From NCBI GenBank assembly GCA_902783885.1, contig CACZSQ010000073.1:1439-65438 (forward strand): DNA of 64,000 bases, read 5' to 3'. Below, one piece after another: positions 2,983 through 62,780 of the stretch. The stretch's first letter is position 1. Each line of letters begins with the position of its first letter. The stretch comes from an uncultured Bacteroidales bacterium (GTDB taxonomy: Bacteria > Bacteroidota > Bacteroidia > Bacteroidales > Bacteroidaceae). The translations under genes and the position numbers were made by a program. The notes beneath the pieces were generated by a model. It searched no databases. It worked only from the letters and a program-made list of their open reading frames with translations, and had not been told where the DNA came from.

Positions 2983-3070
2983 GCTGAAGATGCAGATCTT
3001 ATGGCCTGAAGATCTAGGTCTTCATCGCTTAAGACCTGCATCTTATGGCCGTAAGACCTAGGTCTTCATA
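2983..3070. repeat. Tandem array of 4 x 22-bp hairpin-forming units (gaaga-N-tctt family)
   Basis: Units are gctgaagatgcagatcttatgg, cctgaagatctaggtcttcatc, gcttaagacctgcatcttatgg and ccgtaagacctaggtcttcata. aagacctaggtctt is a perfect palindrome. The array lies 17 bp beyond the 3' end of the GH53 gene. The same family recurs at 46527-46702. Confidence 0.75.
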
Positions 3071-10727: not shown

Positions 10728-10788
10728 TTGTTTGTTAATTAATAATTAGTTTTTATGATTATTTTCAATGTCTTCGACAAAAACGGCG

Positions 10789-10796
10789 CAAAAGTA
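10789..10796 (-). promoter_or_regulatory. -7 promoter motif (TActTTTG on minus strand)
   Basis: Plus-strand caaaagta, 62 nt upstream of the ATG at 10727. Confidence 0.4.
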
Positions 10797-10894
10797 CAAA
10801 TAAAGTGTGAAATATACAATAAATAATACAAACTTTTTTCAAAAGACACCTATTTAGATAATAAAGAGCAATGAAAAATGAAGAATGAATTAAA

Positions 10895-11008
10895 CCACGA
10901 ATTACACAAATATCACGAATCACATGTCCTATTGATAGGATTCAATTATATCGAATTTCTCAAATTCTTAGCGCGCTCGGCTCGAAGAGACGCTTGACAC
11001 TTCAAGAA
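10895..11008 (+). mobile_element. Degenerate copy of the cacgaatt-word MITE-like element with a nested cgctcggc...cttcaagaa module
   Basis: ccacgaattacacaaatatcacgaatcacatgtcctattgataggattcaattatatcgaatttc aligns with the left half of 14025-14283. Relative to that copy it carries an extra segment, cgctcggctcgaagagacgcttgacacttcaagaa (10974-11008). Confidence 0.55.
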
Positions 11009-11186
11009 AGGCTGCGCGGCTTTCGAGTGAGAGAAAACAATCCACAACAATATCCAACAATTTATTGCAACAATAATCAATAATTAAATTTCTGCGCTCT
11101 CTGCAAGCAAACATTAGCACAATTCGCACAATTCGCCGACAAATACACCAACGGCTAAACCGAAAAACATAACGGTTAATTACACT

Positions 11187-11219
11187 CGCTCGGCCAAAGG
11201 ACGCTTGACACTTCAAGAA
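11187..11219 (+). repeat. Second intergenic copy of the cgctcggc...gacgcttgacacttcaagaa module
   Basis: cgctcggccaaaggacgcttgacacttcaagaa. Compare 10974-11008 and the coding copy at 59587-59621. Confidence 0.7.
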
Positions 11220-11260
11220 TTATGCGAATTAATTTCAGAACAAGGATACACGGTTAATTT

Positions 11261-11344
11261 ATCAAGAATTAGAGAATTGGAGAATATTTCTCAAGATGCA
11301 ATACTCTGTCTTATGAATTGATGAGAATGAATAGAATGTCTTTT
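11261..11344 (+). repeat. 84-bp direct repeat R1, copy a
   Basis: atcaagaattagagaattggagaatatttctcaagatgcaatactctgtcttatgaattgatgagaatgaatagaatgtctttt is identical by eye to 11979-12063. Its first 18 nt recur inverted at about 11370-11388. Confidence 0.8.
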
Positions 11345-11408
11345 GCTTTGCAAAAGCTGGTAAAATCTTTAATTCTCTAATTCTTGATAATTGAAGTTTC
11401 GGATAAAA

Positions 11409-11462
11409 TTCTCCACCACAGATTGCACGGATTACACTGATTCTTGTCCTCTTGATTTCAAA
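11409..11462 (+). repeat. cacagatt-word repeat Y, copy 1
   Basis: ttctccaccacagattgcacggattacactgattcttgtcctcttgatttcaaa. It has the same architecture as the MITE left end (ccac + 3 x 9-bp words + tgtcct.ttgat core). Confidence 0.7.
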
Positions 11463-11556
11463 GTTAGAAAAGGAAAGCAGTCTTCTACAACTGCCAGTGC
11501 TGTTACGCAGTTTGGACTTTTCACACCGTTTTTTTGGCCGTTCGAAAGATTATCTC

Positions 11557-11564
11557 TACCTTTG
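11557..11564 (+). promoter_or_regulatory. -7 promoter motif TAccTTTG
   Basis: 29 nt upstream of the ATG at 11593. Confidence 0.45.
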
Positions 11565-11592
11565 TGGCGGAAAGTCATTAAATGAGCACTTT

Positions 11593-11832
11593 ATGACACA
11601 GACTTATCAAGAAAAGGCGACTGCTTTTAATCCTATGCAACTACAGTTGCTTCGGATGTTCTCTTATGTCAAGACCGAAGAACAGCTCAAGGAAATCAAG
11701 ACTGCCTTATGTGATTTTTTCTTCAAGCGTGTGGAGGAAGGTATGGATAGGCTAACAGAGCAAGGCGAATGGAGTCAAGAGAAGGAGGAGGCCATCCTGA
11801 CAGAACATCTACGAACCCCATACAAATATTGA
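11593..11832 (+). CDS. Small antitoxin-like protein (79 aa)
   Basis: MTQTYQEKATAFNPMQLQLLRMFSYVKTEEQLKEIKTALCDFFFKRVEEGMDRLTEQGEWSQEKEEAILTEHLRTPYKY. It resembles the small helical proteins I recall upstream of PIN-domain toxins in Bacteroidota. Its stop overlaps the next ATG (TGATG). The track start at 11452 lies inside repeat Y, so I used the ATG after the promoter motif. Confidence 0.5.
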   Translation: MTQTYQEKATAFNPMQLQLLRMFSYVKTEEQLKEIKTALCDFFFKRVEEGMDRLTEQGEWSQEKEEAILTEHLRTPYKY

Positions 11833-11969
11833 TGAAAAGAATTGTTCTTGATTTCTCCACCACAGATTACACAGATTACACTGATTCTTGTCCTCTTGAT
11901 TTCAAAAATTCATTCTATATTACACTGATTCAAGTTTCGGATGTAAACAACTTGTTGTCTGTAAGGTAA
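11832..11969 (+). pseudogene. Probable remnant of a PIN-like toxin gene, reduced to MKRIVLD then repeat sequence
   Basis: The ATG overlaps the antitoxin stop. The first 7 codons, MKRIVLD, look like a VapC/PIN N-terminus. From codon 8 onward the sequence is repeat Y copy 2. Confidence 0.3.
11853..11906 (+). repeat. cacagatt-word repeat Y, copy 2
   Basis: ttctccaccacagattacacagattacactgattcttgtcctcttgatttcaaa. Two mismatches to copy 1. Confidence 0.7.
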
Positions 11970-11978
11970 TTTATTGCT

Positions 11979-12063
11979 ATCAAGAATTAGAGAATTGGAG
12001 AATATTTCTCAAGATGCAATACTCTGTCTTATGAATTGATGAGAATGAATAGAATGTCTTTTT
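11979..12063 (+). repeat. 84-bp direct repeat R1, copy b
   Basis: Identical by eye to 11261-11344. Confidence 0.8.
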
Positions 12064-12205
12064 GGATTCGCCTCAACATCGCGATGTTATAAAGATCACT
12101 TCGCCGTATTGTGCGGTGTGCGTTACTTTCGTGTTAAAAAATTATTTTGTTCGGCTGCGTTTTCTCTTTTCACCTTGAATTTTTCCTTATTAACTAATTA
12201 TTCCG

Positions 12206-12213
12206 TACCTTTG
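12206..12213 (+). promoter_or_regulatory. -7 promoter motif TAccTTTG, only 8 nt before the ATG
   Basis: gtacctttgcggcgaaATG. This implies a leaderless or very short-leader transcript. Confidence 0.35.
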
Positions 12214-12220
12214 CGGCGAA

Positions 12221-13999: not shown

Positions 14000-14024
14000 G
14001 AAAACACTCTTATATTTGTAGCAC

Positions 14025-14283
14025 CACGAATTTCACGAATTTCACGAATTAGTTAAAATACATGTCCTATTGATATGATTCAATTTATATCGAATTTCAC
14101 GAATTCTTGGCGAAAGGCTTCGCGGCTTTCGAAGGACAAGCATCGGGTAGCTCCTTGGTTAGGTAACATTACGGCTTCACTCGGAGCCCCCCCCGCGTAG
14201 CGGCTCCGCTAAAATTCGTGAAATTCGTTATAATCAGCACTATGCGCCAGCCAAGAAATTTGTGTAATTCGTGAAATTCGTGG
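14025..14283. mobile_element. MITE-like element (~259 bp) whose terminal inverted repeats are tandem cacgaatt words
   Basis: The left end ccacgaatttcacgaatt is the exact reverse complement of the right end aattcgtgaaattcgtgg (14266-14283). The acatgtcctattgata core is shared with 10895 and 15358. The element has no coding capacity. Confidence 0.7.
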
Positions 14284-14328
14284 TATAGAAAGAACATCCA
14301 AAACTTTAATCTTTGATATTTAAGCAGT

Positions 14329-15348: not shown

Positions 15349-15357
15349 CTCAAAGCA

Positions 15358-15462
15358 CCACGAATTTCACGAATTGCACGAATTACATGTCCTATTGATA
15401 TCATTCTAATAATCATAGGTATCAGCTTGCTAAGAAATTCGTGCAATTCGTGTAATTCGTGG
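15358..15462. mobile_element. Short MITE-like element (~105 bp), same family as 14025-14283
   Basis: The left end ccacgaatttcacgaattgcacgaatt is inverted at the right end aattcgtgcaattcgtgtaattcgtgg. It has the same acatgtcctattgata core and the same flanking tatagaaagaacat. It lies between the convergent fmt and xylanase genes. Confidence 0.7.
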
Positions 15463-15488
15463 TATAGAAAGAACATTCGATAGTTCAA

Positions 15489-21502
<6,014 letters not shown>

Positions 21503-22371: not shown

Positions 22372-22600
<229 letters not shown>

Positions 22601-31658: not shown

Positions 31659-31724
31659 CGCTTTTGCCATTGGTGGCAAATGCTTTTGCCATTGGTGGTA
31701 AATGCTTTTGCCATTGGTGGAAAA
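31659..31724. repeat. 3 x 22-bp tandem hairpin units
   Basis: cgcttttgccattggtggcaaa, tgcttttgccattggtggtaaa, tgcttttgccattggtggaaaa. tttgcca-ttgg-tggcaaa is a palindrome. The array starts 9 nt after the C10 stop. Confidence 0.85.
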
Positions 31725-46526: not shown

Positions 46527-46702
46527 GTGAAGGATGAATCCTTATGGCGAGAAGATTTAAACCTTATCGGCAGAAGGATTAAACCTTATGGGCAGAGGAT
46601 TTATATCTTACGGTATGAAGATGCGGGTCTTACGGCTTGAAGATATAGGTCTTCAGGCCTGAAGACCTGCATCTTCTGCCATGAAGACCTGCACCTTAGA
46701 AC
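46527..46702. repeat. Tandem array of 8 x ~22-bp hairpin-forming units (gaaga-N-tctt family)
   Basis: gtgaaggatgaatccttatggc, gagaagatttaaaccttatcggc, agaaggattaaaccttatgggc, agaggatttatatcttacggt, atgaagatgcgggtcttacggc, ttgaagatataggtcttcaggc, ctgaagacctgcatcttctgcc, atgaagacctgcaccttagaac. The last unit supplies the stop codon of 46696..47037. Confidence 0.8.
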
Positions 46703-58845: not shown

Positions 58846-58864
58846 TCGCAAAATCGTGTTTTCT

Positions 58865-60604
58865 ATGGTTCAAGACATACAATTACGCGTGCTGCCGCGT
58901 GTTGCAGCCACCGATGCCAGCATTCGTGAGCTGGTGCTTCAGGAACTGGGATCTGGTGCACAAGAGTTACGTGACCTACGGGTGATTCGCCGCAGCATCG
59001 ATGCGCGCCAGCGACAGGTGATGGTGAATCTCACGGTGCGTGCGTGGCTGAACGAGGAGCCCACGGCAGCATTCCCACAGGTGGAGTACCGCGATGTTTC
59101 AGGGTGTCCGCAGGTGATTGTCGTGGGCGCGGGCCCAGGTGGCCTGTTCGCAGCACTGCGCTTGATAGAACTAGGGTTGCGCCCCATCGTCGTTGAACGC
59201 GGCAAGGATGTTCACGCGCGCAAACTCGATTTGGCACGAATTGCCCGCGAGCACAGTGTCAACCCCGAAAGCAACTACAGCTTCGGCGAAGGCGGCGCAG
59301 GAGCCTACTCCGACGGCAAGCTCTACACGCGCTCCAAGAAACGTGGCTCAGTGGAGAAGATCCTGAACGTGTTCTGCCAGCATGGGGCCTCCACCAACAT
59401 CCTCATTGATGCCCACCCCCACATCGGCACCGACCGCCTGCCGCGCGTCATCGAGAACATACGCAACACCATTCTCCGCTGCGGCGGCGAAGTGCATTTC
59501 CAGACCCGCATGACCCGTCTCATCATCGAGGGTAACCGCGTCATCGGCATCGAGGCACAAAGTTCTTTGACCGGCGAAGGACTCTCCGCTCGGCCCAACG
59601 GGACGCTTGACCCTTCAAGAACTATTAACTCTCCGCTCGGCGCTTGCGACGCTTTGCTCTGCGAAGAACTATTAACCTTCACTGGCCCCGTCATCCTCGC
59701 CACAGGCCATTCCGCTCGCGATGTCTATCGCCTGCTGGCCAACAGCGGCATCGAGATTGAAGCCAAAGGCATCGCCGTGGGCGTGCGCCTAGAGCATCCT
59801 GCACAGCTCATCGACCAGATACAGTATCACAGCCGCGAAGGTCGCGGACGCTGGCTTCCGGCAGCGGAATATGCCTATGTACAGCAGTGCGGCGGGCGTG
59901 GTGTCTATAGTTTCTGCATGTGTCCGGGCGGCTTCGTGGTTCCTGCGGCCACAGGTCCCGAGCAGGTCGTCGTCAACGGCATGAGCCCCAGTAACCGAGG
60001 CGGGCGCTGGAGCAACTCTGGCATGGTCGTGGAGATACGCCCCGAGGACCTCATGGAAATAGACAATGGGCAATGGGCCATGGATCATGGAGAGAATCAT
60101 TGTCAGCCATCAGTTGACAATCCTCAATTACAAATGCTCCTCTTTCAGGAACATCTCGAGCATCTCGCCTGGCAGCAGGGCGGGCGCCGGCAGACAGCCC
60201 CCGCACAGCGCATGGCTGACTTCGTGAACGGAAGACTGAGCGCCGACCTGCCCGCGAGCAGCTATGCCCCTGGCCTCGTGGCCTCACCCCTCCACTTTTG
60301 GATGCCCCGCTTCATCAGCGAGCGCCTGCAAGAAGGCTTCCGTGCCTTCGGGCGCAAGAGCCATGGTTTCCTCACCAACGAGGCCACCCTCATCGGTGTG
60401 GAGACGCGCACCTCTTCGCCCGTGAGAATCCTGCGAGATGCTGACACCCTGCACCACATCCGCCTCGAAGGCCTCTACCCCTGCGGCGAGGGAGCCGGCT
60501 ATGCCGGCGGTATCGTCAGTGCCGCGATCGACGGGGAACGCTGTGCCGATGCCGTGGCTCAATCATACCGCCTACAAACATTCGGCATTGTACAGAGATC
60601 CTAG
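58865..60604 (+). CDS. NAD(P)/FAD-dependent oxidoreductase (COG2509-like)
   Basis: VIVVGAGPGGLFAALRL dinucleotide-binding motif, FGEGGAGAYSDGKLYTRSKKRG, ILATGHSARD, GEGAGYAGGIVSAA. Confidence 0.7.
   Translation: MVQDIQLRVLPRVAATDASIRELVLQELGSGAQELRDLRVIRRSIDARQRQVMVNLTVRAWLNEEPTAAFPQVEYRDVSGCPQVIVVGAGPGGLFAALRLIELGLRPIVVERGKDVHARKLDLARIAREHSVNPESNYSFGEGGAGAYSDGKLYTRSKKRGSVEKILNVFCQHGASTNILIDAHPHIGTDRLPRVIENIRNTILRCGGEVHFQTRMTRLIIEGNRVIGIEAQSSLTGEGLSARPNGTLDPSRTINSPLGACDALLCEELLTFTGPVILATGHSARDVYRLLANSGIEIEAKGIAVGVRLEHPAQLIDQIQYHSREGRGRWLPAAEYAYVQQCGGRGVYSFCMCPGGFVVPAATGPEQVVVNGMSPSNRGGRWSNSGMVVEIRPEDLMEIDNGQWAMDHGENHCQPSVDNPQLQMLLFQEHLEHLAWQQGGRRQTAPAQRMADFVNGRLSADLPASSYAPGLVASPLHFWMPRFISERLQEGFRAFGRKSHGFLTNEATLIGVETRTSSPVRILRDADTLHHIRLEGLYPCGEGAGYAGGIVSAAIDGERCADAVAQSYRLQTFGIVQRS
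59561..59677 (+). repeat. Repeat-derived segment in frame inside the oxidoreductase ORF
   Basis: It contains cgctcggcccaacgggacgcttgacccttcaagaa (59587-59621), about 30/35 identical to the intergenic copies at 10974 and 11187. It also has a 13-bp perfect direct repeat, aagaactattaac, at 59617-59629 and 59664-59676. It encodes about SSLTGEGLSARPNGTLDPSRTINSPLGACDALLCEELL. Confidence 0.65.
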
Positions 60605-61175: not shown

Positions 61176-62780
61176 TTAGGTGGTGATGCCGAGTTTTTTT
61201 GCCTTTTCGATGATGAAGGCAAGGGCGGCGTCGTGGTCGTTGGGGATGAGGCCGTCGAGGATGGCGTCCTTGACGGCTGTCTTGAGGGTGCCCACCTCAC
61301 GGGAGGGCGGCAGATGGAAGTGCTCCATGATCTCCTCGCCGCTGACGGGCGGCTGGAAGTTGCGGATACGGTCGCGTTCCTCGAGGTCGATGAGCTTCTG
61401 GCGCACGAGCTTGAAGTTGTCGAGGAAGCGTTGCTTGCGCTGCTCGTTCTTGCTGGTGATGTCCGCCTCGCACAGCAGCATCAGGTCGTCAATGTCGTCG
61501 CCCGCCTCAAACAGCAGGCGTCGCACAGCGCTGTCAGTCACTTCGTCGTCAGCGATGGCGATGGGGCGCATGTGCAGCGACACCAGCTTCTGCACATACT
61601 TCATCCGCTCGTCCATCGGCAGCTTCAGGCGCCGGAAAATCTGCGGCACCATCTTCTCGCCAATATAATTATGGTTATGGAACGTCCAGCCCAGCTGCGG
61701 GTCCCAACGCTTCGACTTCGGTTTCCCGATATCGTGCAGCAGCGCCGCCCAGCGCAGCCAGACAGACTCCTCTTTATCTCCCCTTCCTGACGGGAGGGGT
61801 TGGGTCTGCTGTTTCTTCACGACATTCGTCAGCACCTCAAGCGTGTGCCAGAAGTTGTCTTTGTGGGCGCGGCCGTTGACAGTGTCTATACCCTGGAGAG
61901 CGTAGAGCTCGGGGAAGATGAGTTCCAGGAGGCCGCATTGGAACAACAGCTCAAAGCCTCGTGCGGGGCTGTCAGAAGCCATGATTTTCTGCAGCTCGTC
62001 AATGATGCGCTCGCCGGAGATGATCTTGATGCGCTCGCGGTTGCGGTTGAGCGCCTCGAACGTCTCGGGCTCAATCTCGAAATTCAGCTGCGTGGCAAAG
62101 CGGATGCAGCGCATCATGCGCAGCGGGTCGTCGGAGAAGGTTACGTCGGGGTCCAGTGGTGTCGCTATGAGACGGTCCTGCATGTCCCACACACCGTCGA
62201 AGGGATCTACCAACTCGCCGAAGCGCGCCGTGTTCAGGCAGATGGCCATGGCGTTGATGGTGAAGTCGCGCCGCTGCTGGTCATCCTCCAAGGTGCCGTC
62301 CTCAACAATGGGCTTGCGGGAGTCGTGGCTGTAGCTCTCGCGGCGCGCGCCGACAAACTCCAGCTCGATAGTTGCTTCGCAACGGTCAGAGTCGCTTCGC
62401 GACGGTGAAGGTTGCTTCGCAACGGTGAGTAGTTCCTCACCCTTCTCACCTCTAACCGCACCGCAGGTGCTTTCACCTCTCACCGCGCAGAAGGCGCTTT
62501 CACCAATAAAAGCTTTCACCTGCGCCGTGCCGAAGTTCCTGAAGACGCTCACGTGTGCGCCGCGCCCAAGGCGCCTGGCCACAGCCTTGGCCAGCTCTAT
62601 GCCGCTGCCCACGCACACCACATCGATGTCCTTGGACGGCCGTTCCAGGAACAGGTCGCGGACATAACCGCCCACGACATAACACTCCACGCCCTGTTCA
62701 TCGGCCACCTGCCCAATGAGTTCAAACACAGGGTTTTCGCGAAGCAGAAGAGTCAACTGTTGCCGGTCTAAAAGTCTCAT
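61176..62780 (-). CDS. CCA tRNA nucleotidyltransferase / poly(A) polymerase family protein with an HD domain
   Basis: YVVGGYVRDLFLERPSKDIDVVCVG, FGTA...IELEFVGARRESY, RDFTINAMA, LLHDIGKP (HD). Confidence 0.8.
   Translation of the reverse strand: MRLLDRQQLTLLLRENPVFELIGQVADEQGVECYVVGGYVRDLFLERPSKDIDVVCVGSGIELAKAVARRLGRGAHVSVFRNFGTAQVKAFIGESAFCAVRGESTCGAVRGEKGEELLTVAKQPSPSRSDSDRCEATIELEFVGARRESYSHDSRKPIVEDGTLEDDQQRRDFTINAMAICLNTARFGELVDPFDGVWDMQDRLIATPLDPDVTFSDDPLRMMRCIRFATQLNFEIEPETFEALNRNRERIKIISGERIIDELQKIMASDSPARGFELLFQCGLLELIFPELYALQGIDTVNGRAHKDNFWHTLEVLTNVVKKQQTQPLPSGRGDKEESVWLRWAALLHDIGKPKSKRWDPQLGWTFHNHNYIGEKMVPQIFRRLKLPMDERMKYVQKLVSLHMRPIAIADDEVTDSAVRRLLFEAGDDIDDLMLLCEADITSKNEQRKQRFLDNFKLVRQKLIDLEERDRIRNFQPPVSGEEIMEHFHLPPSREVGTLKTAVKDAILDGLIPNDHDAALAFIIEKAKKLGITT
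62370..62507. repeat. 138-nt in-frame repeat segment inside the CCA-enzyme ORF, built from tandem words in inverted arms
   Basis: gttgcttcgcaacggt occurs twice and agtcgcttcgcgacggt once. These face ttctcacctctaaccgcaccgcaggtgc and tttcacctctcaccgcgcagaaggcgc, which are about 75% reverse-complementary. The segment encodes IGESAFCAVRGESTCGAVRGEKGEELLTVAKQPSPSRSDSDRCEAT, between FGTAQVKAF and IELEFVGARRESY. Confidence 0.7.

Follow-up and report, generated by a model that had tools for sequence, protein, structure and literature searches.

Two in-frame insertions of a 33-nt, two-hairpin element, probably mobile DNA, in a surface loop of a Bacteroidales FAD-dependent protein gene

The window analysed here, a stretch of 64,000 nt from an uncultured Bacteroidales bacterium (contig CACZSQ010000073.1, positions 1,439 to 65,438), contains a gene for a flavin adenine dinucleotide (FAD)-dependent protein into which two 33-nt elements, I1 and I2, have been inserted in frame, both immediately upstream of the sequence coding for the conserved GPVILATGHSARD motif. 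We conclude that this segment probably represents two independent insertions of a tiny, non-autonomous mobile DNA element that is abundant in rumen Prevotella-type genomes. The host gene (58856 to 60604; this gene and all copies of the element in the window are on the plus strand) is an intact open reading frame (ORF) of 582 amino acids (aa), for which the ATG at 58865 (MVQD...) is the likelier start. Its product was assigned to the COG2509 / VP0956 family; Pfam detected FAD-depend_C (7e-68) plus an FAD-binding Rossmann motif at the N-terminus, and the match to PDB entry 3nlc had E=7e-100.

Comparison with orthologues gave clean filled and empty alleles. The insert-free orthologue P0004 (loci L001 and L002) is 96% identical to the host protein, and the two genes are 92.6% identical in DNA. 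This empty allele reads gactctc^aaccattaactctc^aaccattaaccttcactgg, the second junction being ^aaccattaac, and holds a 14-nt unit twice; the window gene has exactly 33 nt extra at each marked position. Against this allele the boundaries of I1 and I2 cannot be shifted, and there is zero target duplication. Reading along the window, the left part of the first 14-nt target unit (actctc, 59581 to 59586), which is the pyrimidine-rich left flank of I1, is followed by I1 itself (cgctcggcccaacgggacgcttgacccttcaag, 59587 to 59619). Next comes aactattaactctc (59620 to 59633), made up of the rest of target unit 1 and the start of unit 2, which lies outside both elements and equals aaccattaactctc in the empty allele. 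I2 (cgctcggcgcttgcgacgctttgctctgcgaag, 59634 to 59666) is followed by aactattaac (59667 to 59676), the rest of target unit 2 and the source of the AA(Y) right flank. Each element occupies 11 codons, I1 being read as ARPNGTLDPSR (residues 245-255) and I2 as (P)LGACDALLCE (residues 260-270), and a junction peptide of the insert-bearing protein is predicted to be, for example, GLSARPNGTLDPSR. Since each element is 33 nt long and has a stop-free frame, the gene stays open.

Both 33-mers recur elsewhere. L003 and L127 carry identical copies of I1 at the corresponding position, others are found at the unrelated loci L086, L087 and L094, and an identical copy of I2 occurs at the unrelated locus L121, with 30-nt relatives of I2 at L119, L120, L122, L123 and L125. 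I2 belongs to another subfamily, having hairpin 2 as CTTTGC-TCT-GCGAAG instead of CTTGA/TCAAG. I2 is not a decayed I1: only 24 of 34 aligned columns match between the two elements, hairpin 2 is fully re-paired and the I2 33-mer recurs elsewhere. An initial annotation of the window, made from the sequence alone, had noticed a repeat of intergenic type lying in frame in this gene and matching non-coding copies, and both observations held: the intact ORF spans it, the core CGCTCGGC-N8-ACGCTTGAC is found at 10974 and 59587 (0.03 expected), and the 20-mer GACGCTTGACACTTCAAGAA, with up to three mismatches, is found at 10989, 11200 and 59602 (one mismatch at the last; 0.02 expected). What had been taken for a related half-module is the full I2 element, and the 13-bp repeat aagaactattaac that had looked like a duplication or insertion scar consists of the shared AAG end plus 10 nt of the 14-nt unit, of which the empty allele already holds two copies; a target-site duplication is absent. 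The roughly 38 residues that the annotation ascribed to the insert do include extra residues before the conserved motif, but the elements supply 22 of them and the rest of the loop is older.

Elements of this family are 30 to 38 nt long, mostly 33, and consist of CGCT, hairpin 1 (CGG-C-xy/y'x'-G-A-CG) and hairpin 2 (CTTGA-NNNN-TCAAG, or compensated variants), followed by the flank AA. CGCTCG... at one end and ...TCAAG at the other do not form an inverted repeat, and the consensus has the conserved 5' tail CGCT and no GTAG on either strand. We scanned one genome per GTDB species with a strict pattern. Among the matches listed were more than 113 stretches, nearly all from metagenome-assembled genomes (MAGs) titled as rumen Prevotella, Prevotellaceae, Bacteroidaceae or Bacteroidales, and one contig titled Ruminococcus. 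The listed loci together with the window contain 130 copies matched by the pattern, with exact ends in unrelated flanks; 85 of them have 33 nt, 41 have 32 nt and 4 have 31 nt, and a covariance model applied to 116 loci found about 186 copies, diverged ones included. The majority of copies stand alone or form direct tandems interleaved with array units (as in L015 and the window), inverted pairs being few (L012, L075 and L108). Viral contigs gave one hit in 2.9 million, which does not point to phages as carriers.

The stems of both hairpins vary by compensated changes. Hairpin 2 occurs as CTCGA/TCGAG, CTTCA/TGAAG or, in the I2 type, CTTTGC/GCGAAG in place of CTTGA/TCAAG, and hairpin 1 as CGACC/GGTCG or CGAGC/GCTCG in place of CGGCxy/y'x'GACG. 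Over 58 distinct sequences the stem cells were paired in 98.5% of cases versus 89.9% in shuffles, and four pairs changed on both sides (40 cells). In this alignment, which was fitted to the model, the covariation score was 0.166 versus 0.036 when shuffled (reached by none of 500 shuffles), and slid controls scored at most 0.017. The pattern of substitutions indicates that both hairpins are under selection. Three of the four variants tested as plus-strand DNA gave the fold ....((.(((...))).))(((((....))))).., and for I2 DNA an equivalent two-hairpin fold was weakly favoured (ensemble frequency 0.18, z = +1.1).

The sites of insertion share a short target. At 111 dereplicated sites the right flank is A (97%), A (95%) and then C or T (86%), and position -1 is C or T (74%). 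An empty junction was found elsewhere, either in a paralogous repeat copy or in an orthologue, for 52 of 141 dereplicated sites, and these filled and empty pairs demonstrate precise insertion, with duplication at no junction. Sites fall at unit boundaries of 7-9-nt tandem arrays in 36% of cases, versus 7% of control Y^AAY sites, and in loops of perfect hairpins in 8%, versus 1.3% of control sites; one element is nested inside the AAA loop of another. A second repeat family that invades genes in frame, a TCCCCTCCCT-AAC-AGGGGAGGGG hairpin (L068, L110, L043, L040 and L108), was also observed; in many enzymes it reads SPLPNRGG(A/D)GGG, PSLTGG(A/V)GGGS and similar, and the 33-nt element is often nested in its loop, for example twice in the L108 DNA topoisomerase gene.

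At the FAD gene itself, presence or absence of the elements varies within a species. The window allele, L127 and L003 have I1, which L001, L126 and L004 lack; I2 is limited to window-type alleles and is absent from L127, which has I1 alone. Alleles with I1 and I2, with I1 only and with none occur within clusters of at least 90% identity, that of the window protein including both-element and I1-only alleles. Over whole genes, DNA identity is 96.4% between L003 and L126, 84.5% between L003 and L004 and about 81.5% between the two groups. Alleles with both elements were each found in 1 to 7 contigs, from ENA, NCBI and JGI assemblies, and the series as a whole is drawn from independent assemblies in ENA, NCBI, JGI and Logan, which excludes an assembly artefact and shows recent gain, loss or exchange. 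The orthologues that have the same insert (P0006, P0125, P0126 and P0132) all fall within the clade in which the DNA module is widespread, and hence give no case against the initial annotation, whose refutation would have called for genomes lacking the module elsewhere. In P0124, which belongs to the window protein cluster, an 87-nt deletion takes out both elements together with array units and joins SSLTGE to ELLTF; it lies between the 8-nt near-repeats GAAGGACT (59576) and GAAGAACT (59663), so that the end of the element itself has a part in its microhomology-mediated loss. I1 is identical at 33 of 33 positions between the window and L003, its flanks being 80-83% identical, a difference with a chance of about 0.001 under equal divergence.

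Homologous recombination or gene conversion among dispersed arrays that already carried the element could also distribute copies in this way, with no transposition at all, and we consider this unlikely. More than a third of sites, as given above, are in arrays with similar units, the alleles P0126 and L127 at this locus are recombinant, and there is neither a target duplication nor a known enzyme. Copies of the same subtype are nevertheless found with nucleotide-exact ends in unrelated, non-repetitive flanks, namely in hairpin loops, after hairpins, in unique sequence and inside another element, and the flanks of I1 differ between the window (ctctc/aactatt) and L003 (ctctt/aactctt) even though the 33 nt are identical.

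Many copies of the element are inside genes. Of 161 family copies, 37 are flanked on both sides by at least 50 codons of the ORF that contains them, about 77% of copies being non-coding. All 37 genic copies preserve the frame, 34 of them having 33 nt and 3 having 30 nt, whereas not one of the 62 copies with a length of 31, 32 or 38 nt is in a spanning ORF (Fisher p=7e-10); the element is therefore translated and not removed, and frame-breaking copies are purged. An element that splices itself out, or is otherwise removed from RNA, was ruled out by reasoning, as it contradicts this multiple-of-3 length filter. The host genes encode altronate dehydratase, cofactor-independent phosphoglycerate mutase, M3 peptidase, threonine synthase, GH2 glycosidases and a DNA topoisomerase (Topoisom_bac/Toprim). 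Every stop-free reading frame is used, in both orientations, giving unrelated peptides such as ARPxGTLDPSR, LGPxGRLTLQE, LEGSSVxxSRA and FLKGQAS. In the TonB-dependent receptor ORF of L008, the compensated hairpin 2 CTCGA/TCGAG lacks the TGA by which the third sense frame is otherwise closed, and the element is translated in this otherwise forbidden frame as RSAQRDARHFE.

That the inserted peptides are themselves selected as protein features, for example as a functional loop motif, with the similarity in DNA secondary, appears very improbable. In its favour, the insert is kept in several strains and ARPxGTLDPSR recurs in many proteins, but most copies are non-coding, those in genes use both orientations and all stop-free frames to encode unrelated peptides, and the host proteins are functionally unrelated. 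Strains of the same species lack the insert, and both conservation and covariation are seen at the level of nucleotides. We hold equally little confidence in a role at the RNA level, by which an mRNA-stabilising or processing hairpin would have been copied because it is useful and the covariation would reflect RNA folding. The covariation does support a folded single strand, and the sense orientation predominates in genes, 28 versus 9 (p=0.003, although these counts are not independent, some genes holding several copies). RNA folding energies, however, are no better than those of shuffles (z from -0.6 to +1.2), whereas plus-strand DNA reaches z values down to -2.2; Rfam gave zero matches in the window or in the repeat-rich spacer, and an RNA role would leave the precise, target-specific insertion unexplained. 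The reading that a 47-nt unit inside the gene was duplicated in tandem, or slipped, and then diverged has almost nothing to recommend it, for although Tandem Repeats Finder reports a 47-nt period (x2.0, 80% matches) at 59581-59676 and the two units share 12 nt at the 5' side and 13 nt at the 3' side, the empty allele holds the 14-nt unit twice without either element, I1 and I2 differ in ten of 34 columns with hairpin 2 re-paired though the window and L127 genes are 97.8% identical, identical copies of each 33-mer occur at unrelated loci, and alleles with I1 alone exist.

The two elements lie in one of two loops that hold most of the length variation of the FAD protein, whose orthologues range from 515 to 835 aa (n=120). 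Site 1, which received I1 and I2, is directly before F.GPVILATGHSARD, and site 2 is after RPED; all invariant motifs are kept intact in the orthologue alignment. The site 1 loop is 45 aa long in the window protein versus 9-10 aa in the shortest orthologues. In 3nlc (VP0956), the only solved homologue, a 9-residue connection corresponds to query residues 232-274. An AlphaFold model, poor overall with a mean predicted local distance difference test (pLDDT) score of 57.6 and used solely to call the insert unstructured between strands, places residues 239-269 at pLDDT ~30 between confident strands at 228-236 and 271-276. From this structural comparison the insertions are, most simply, probably neutral passengers within a permissive surface turn. 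Some site 1 peptides of orthologues, such as STLNSQLSTLNSQ, are (AACTCTC)n translated in all three frames. Site 2 (60060 to 60135) has in the window a degenerate CAATGGR-type array (caatggg caatggg ccatgga), and in P0043, P0046, P0055 and P0132 it carries the same element family. Long in-frame arrays are found at site 2 of some orthologues, for example INHQSS about 10 times (P0008, P0060 and P0025). In P0002, P0003, P0005 and P0035 (781, 835, 711 and 621 aa) whole protein segments are duplicated internally, either by true tandem duplication or by assembly collapse or expansion.

The probable explanation of site 1, insertion of mobile DNA, runs as follows. The surface turn of the FAD protein already had two 14-nt array units (ctctc^aacYattaa), and each unit received one element, the two coming from different subfamilies. 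The element is pasted just 5' of AA(C/T), after a pyrimidine and without target duplication, its preferred sites being DNA that readily becomes single-stranded, such as array unit boundaries and hairpin loops, and the 22 added residues are tolerated, probably neutrally, in a turn that has 9 residues in the solved homologue. As to how the element moves, the most likely mechanism, which we put forward tentatively from analogy, is that a hairpin-recognising enzyme of the HUH/Y1 type mobilises the element in trans, by way of a single-stranded DNA intermediate, as for the repetitive extragenic palindromic (REP) sequences with their RAYT enzymes and for IS200/IS605. Going further, one might speculate, with considerable doubt, that this is a new transposition system of Bacteroidota, in which a two-hairpin, ultra-small substrate would be handled by an enzyme with its own chemistry and placed in single-stranded loops or at array boundaries 5' of AA, with one base possibly replaced and no duplication. 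Such a system would still be active in rumen Prevotella and, with heptamer arrays and GGGAGGGG-hairpin repeats, would be remodelling surface loops of essential enzymes.

Several results weigh against the explanation by mobile DNA, or limit the evidence for it. A phmmer search of limited sensitivity, with three Y1 transposase queries (IS200, IS608 and RAYT types), gave no hit in the element-bearing loci (about 1 Mb; ORFs of 80 aa or more). Clustering of ORFs of at least 120 aa gave no recurrent neighbour gene, only an ECF sigma factor and syntenic neighbours, and these enzyme tests are weak, since a single-copy enzyme would rarely fall within the 8-kb flanks of MAG contigs. An autonomous version with split ends was not seen, the apparent "solo" halves being full elements with variant stems or chance coding matches, and an IS608-like guide sequence would find no space at the end next to the target. 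The alignment used for covariation was fitted to the model, and ascertainment by a strict pattern inflates the apparent conservation. Homologous exchange, as seen in the recombinant alleles P0126 and L127, also moves inserts between lineages, so I1 in two lineages need not mean two insertions. Finally, filled sites have A directly after the element in 97% of cases, but some matching empty sites have T or C there, which makes the 3' boundary or the chemistry less certain. AA follows the element at nearly all filled sites versus only about two-thirds of the matching empty sites; in the host repeat CCAGCC-N7-GGCTGGC, 9 of 9 empty copies have TA and 10 of 10 filled copies, with at least three element subtypes, have AA; and the allelic pair L003 and L126 has C versus A at this base. 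Two readings fit this pattern: insertion strikes AA variants only, or the element brings the first A along and one base is replaced.

Three further candidates were rejected. Integron attC sites were ruled out by reasoning, as their crossover would be G^TT and they measure 57-141 bp, and so was CRISPR spacer integration, which needs a repeat duplication and spacers unrelated in sequence. A REPtron-like arrangement was considered for an inverted pair 0.6 kb apart in L065, which encloses only AT-rich repeat DNA.

Among known systems, the element resembles the RAYT-mobilised REP and REPIN sequences of Enterobacteria and Pseudomonas in that it is of the 20-40 nt class, forms hairpins, is non-autonomous, likely has hundreds of copies, has subfamilies with compensated stem changes, and has neither terminal inverted repeats nor target duplication. 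At 30-38 nt it is, like a REP, a short single-strand stem-loop with a covarying stem. It differs in having two different hairpins of 5-6 bp where a REP has one long imperfect palindrome, and the conserved tail CGCT where a REP has an unpaired 5' GTAG tag. Unlike REPIN or bacterial interspersed mosaic elements, it rarely occurs as inverted dimers, being mostly present as singletons or direct tandem copies; unlike REPs, about one fifth of its copies are inside genes, and its host phylum is Bacteroidota. REP/RAYT systems have a single-copy RAYT (Y1 transposase) gene flanked by the repeats; the weak search described above, covering ~1 Mb of element loci, gave no Y1-like ORF. The literature searched contained no description of REPIN-RAYT for Bacteroidota. 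The element is also like IS200/IS605 and palindrome-associated transposable elements in having no target duplication, no inverted terminal repeats and hairpins at its ends, and like IS200/IS605 it has a short, one-sided target (AA(Y), 95-97%) and prefers single-stranded sites. The target is 2-3 nt (AAY, or RTT on the other strand) as opposed to 4-5 nt in IS200/IS605, the two hairpins are dissimilar, there is no spacing for a guide tetranucleotide, and no TnpA was detected in the ~1 Mb of loci. In IS200/IS605-type transposition a Y1 HUH transposase works on one strand, and orientation is biased to the lagging-strand template. The miniature inverted-repeat transposable elements known as MITEs (Correia/NEMIS, RUP, ERIC) are likewise small and non-autonomous, can nest and occasionally lie in ORFs, but they are 70-300 bp long and have terminal inverted repeats and target-site duplications, neither of which the element has.

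In-frame colonisation of housekeeping genes by palindromic DNA is known classically from the Rickettsia palindromic elements (RPEs) and sporadically from REPs. The RPEs (Ogata et al. 2000) are reportedly about 100-150 bp long, add 30-50 aa to proteins and belong to alphaproteobacterial intracellular bacteria, and they are said to be selfish palindromic DNA found in frame in many unrelated, functional protein genes, typically in surface regions. The present element, too, colonises many genes in frame, real enzymes among them, but at 33 nt and 11 aa it is about four times smaller; it is unrelated in sequence, its hosts are free-living gut anaerobes, and it varies within species. Judged by size and sequence it is an analogue of the RPEs and not a member.

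CGTC-tagged repeats, including dRS3 of Neisseria and RPE-4 and RPE-6 of Rickettsia, have no known associated transposase and have been reported in Bacteroidetes, with some copies intragenic and in frame; they have an unpaired terminal CGTC tag, a single stem of 8-9 bp whose first pairs are A-T, a loop of 4-5 nt and a CCA tail (Di Nocera et al. 2013, PMC3733652). The element likewise has CGTC on its minus strand and some in-frame genic copies, but its CGTC is in the base of the hairpin 1 stem, its stems are G+C-rich and of 5-6 bp, and it has a second hairpin and no CCA tail. We found no description of the element in Prevotella or Bacteroidota in the literature searched, and we class it as a REP/RPE-like family of selfish palindromic DNA that is, in that literature, undescribed for Bacteroidota. 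It stands out for how small it is, how often it lies in genes, how it nests and for a polymorphism that is still ongoing.

The phenomenon known from RPEs is thus found in dominant rumen bacteria with an element of 11 codons, about one fifth of whose copies are genic and whose alleles segregate within species. It offers a natural setting in which to measure the tolerance of proteins to insertions in loops, and a defined substrate (33 nt, two hairpins, Y^AAY target) for finding the mobilising enzyme. It is also a warning for annotation, and for comparison of orthologue lengths, in Prevotella MAGs.

The covariance model finds exactly four copies in the window, the next match scoring 10 bits. I1 scores 59.2 bits (59587-59621) and I2 32.0 bits (59634-59668, E=3e-12). 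The other two are non-coding: a 33-nt copy of subtype TCGAAGAG at 10974 to 11006 (60.9 bits over 10974-11008) and a 31-nt copy with a short hairpin 1 at 11187 to 11217 (54.4 bits over 11187-11219). Nesting of the 10974 copy in a MITE, suspected in the initial annotation, was borne out: it is a precise 33-nt insertion in a MITE-like repeat, seen as 33 gapped columns when aligned to the paralogue at 14018-14160, which has the empty site gcg^aaaggc (14110 to 14118, plus strand, junction between 14112 and 14113). The host of this copy is a truncated relative (10891-11040) of the MITE-like elements at 14023-14284 and 15357-15463, whose 28-nt terminal inverted repeats are three tandem 9-mers CACGAATTT.

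Other repeats are numerous in the window. The region 10730-12220, about 1.5 kb of non-coding, AT-rich DNA (39% G+C), is dense with several repeat families and 9-nt arrays and includes an 85-nt perfect direct repeat (11260-11344 and 11978-12062). Long intergenic arrays at 22372-22515, 18004-18113 and 20480-20535 are all free of the element; they include (AGTTGAG)x21, which on the other strand is of the AACTCTC type and is the element's preferred target sequence, and 9-nt arrays (ATAGGGCAT) x12 and x6. Arrays of 22-nt units occur at 2997-3066, 46529-46697 and 31660-31724 (TCTTATGGCCTGAAGACCTAGG-like; GCTTTTGCCATTGGTGGAAAAT x3), the first two being related, in inverted orientation and 43 kb apart. 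The neighbouring gene at 61176-62780 (minus strand), of the CCA-adding/poly(A) polymerase family, also contains in-frame repeat DNA, at 62370-62504, in the form of three 20-nt units, each a hairpin of the GTTGC-GAA-GCAAC type, and a 27-nt unit repeated 2.2 times; in its product the Pfam head domain extends over residues 33-205 versus only 125 model positions, implying an insertion of about 48 aa.

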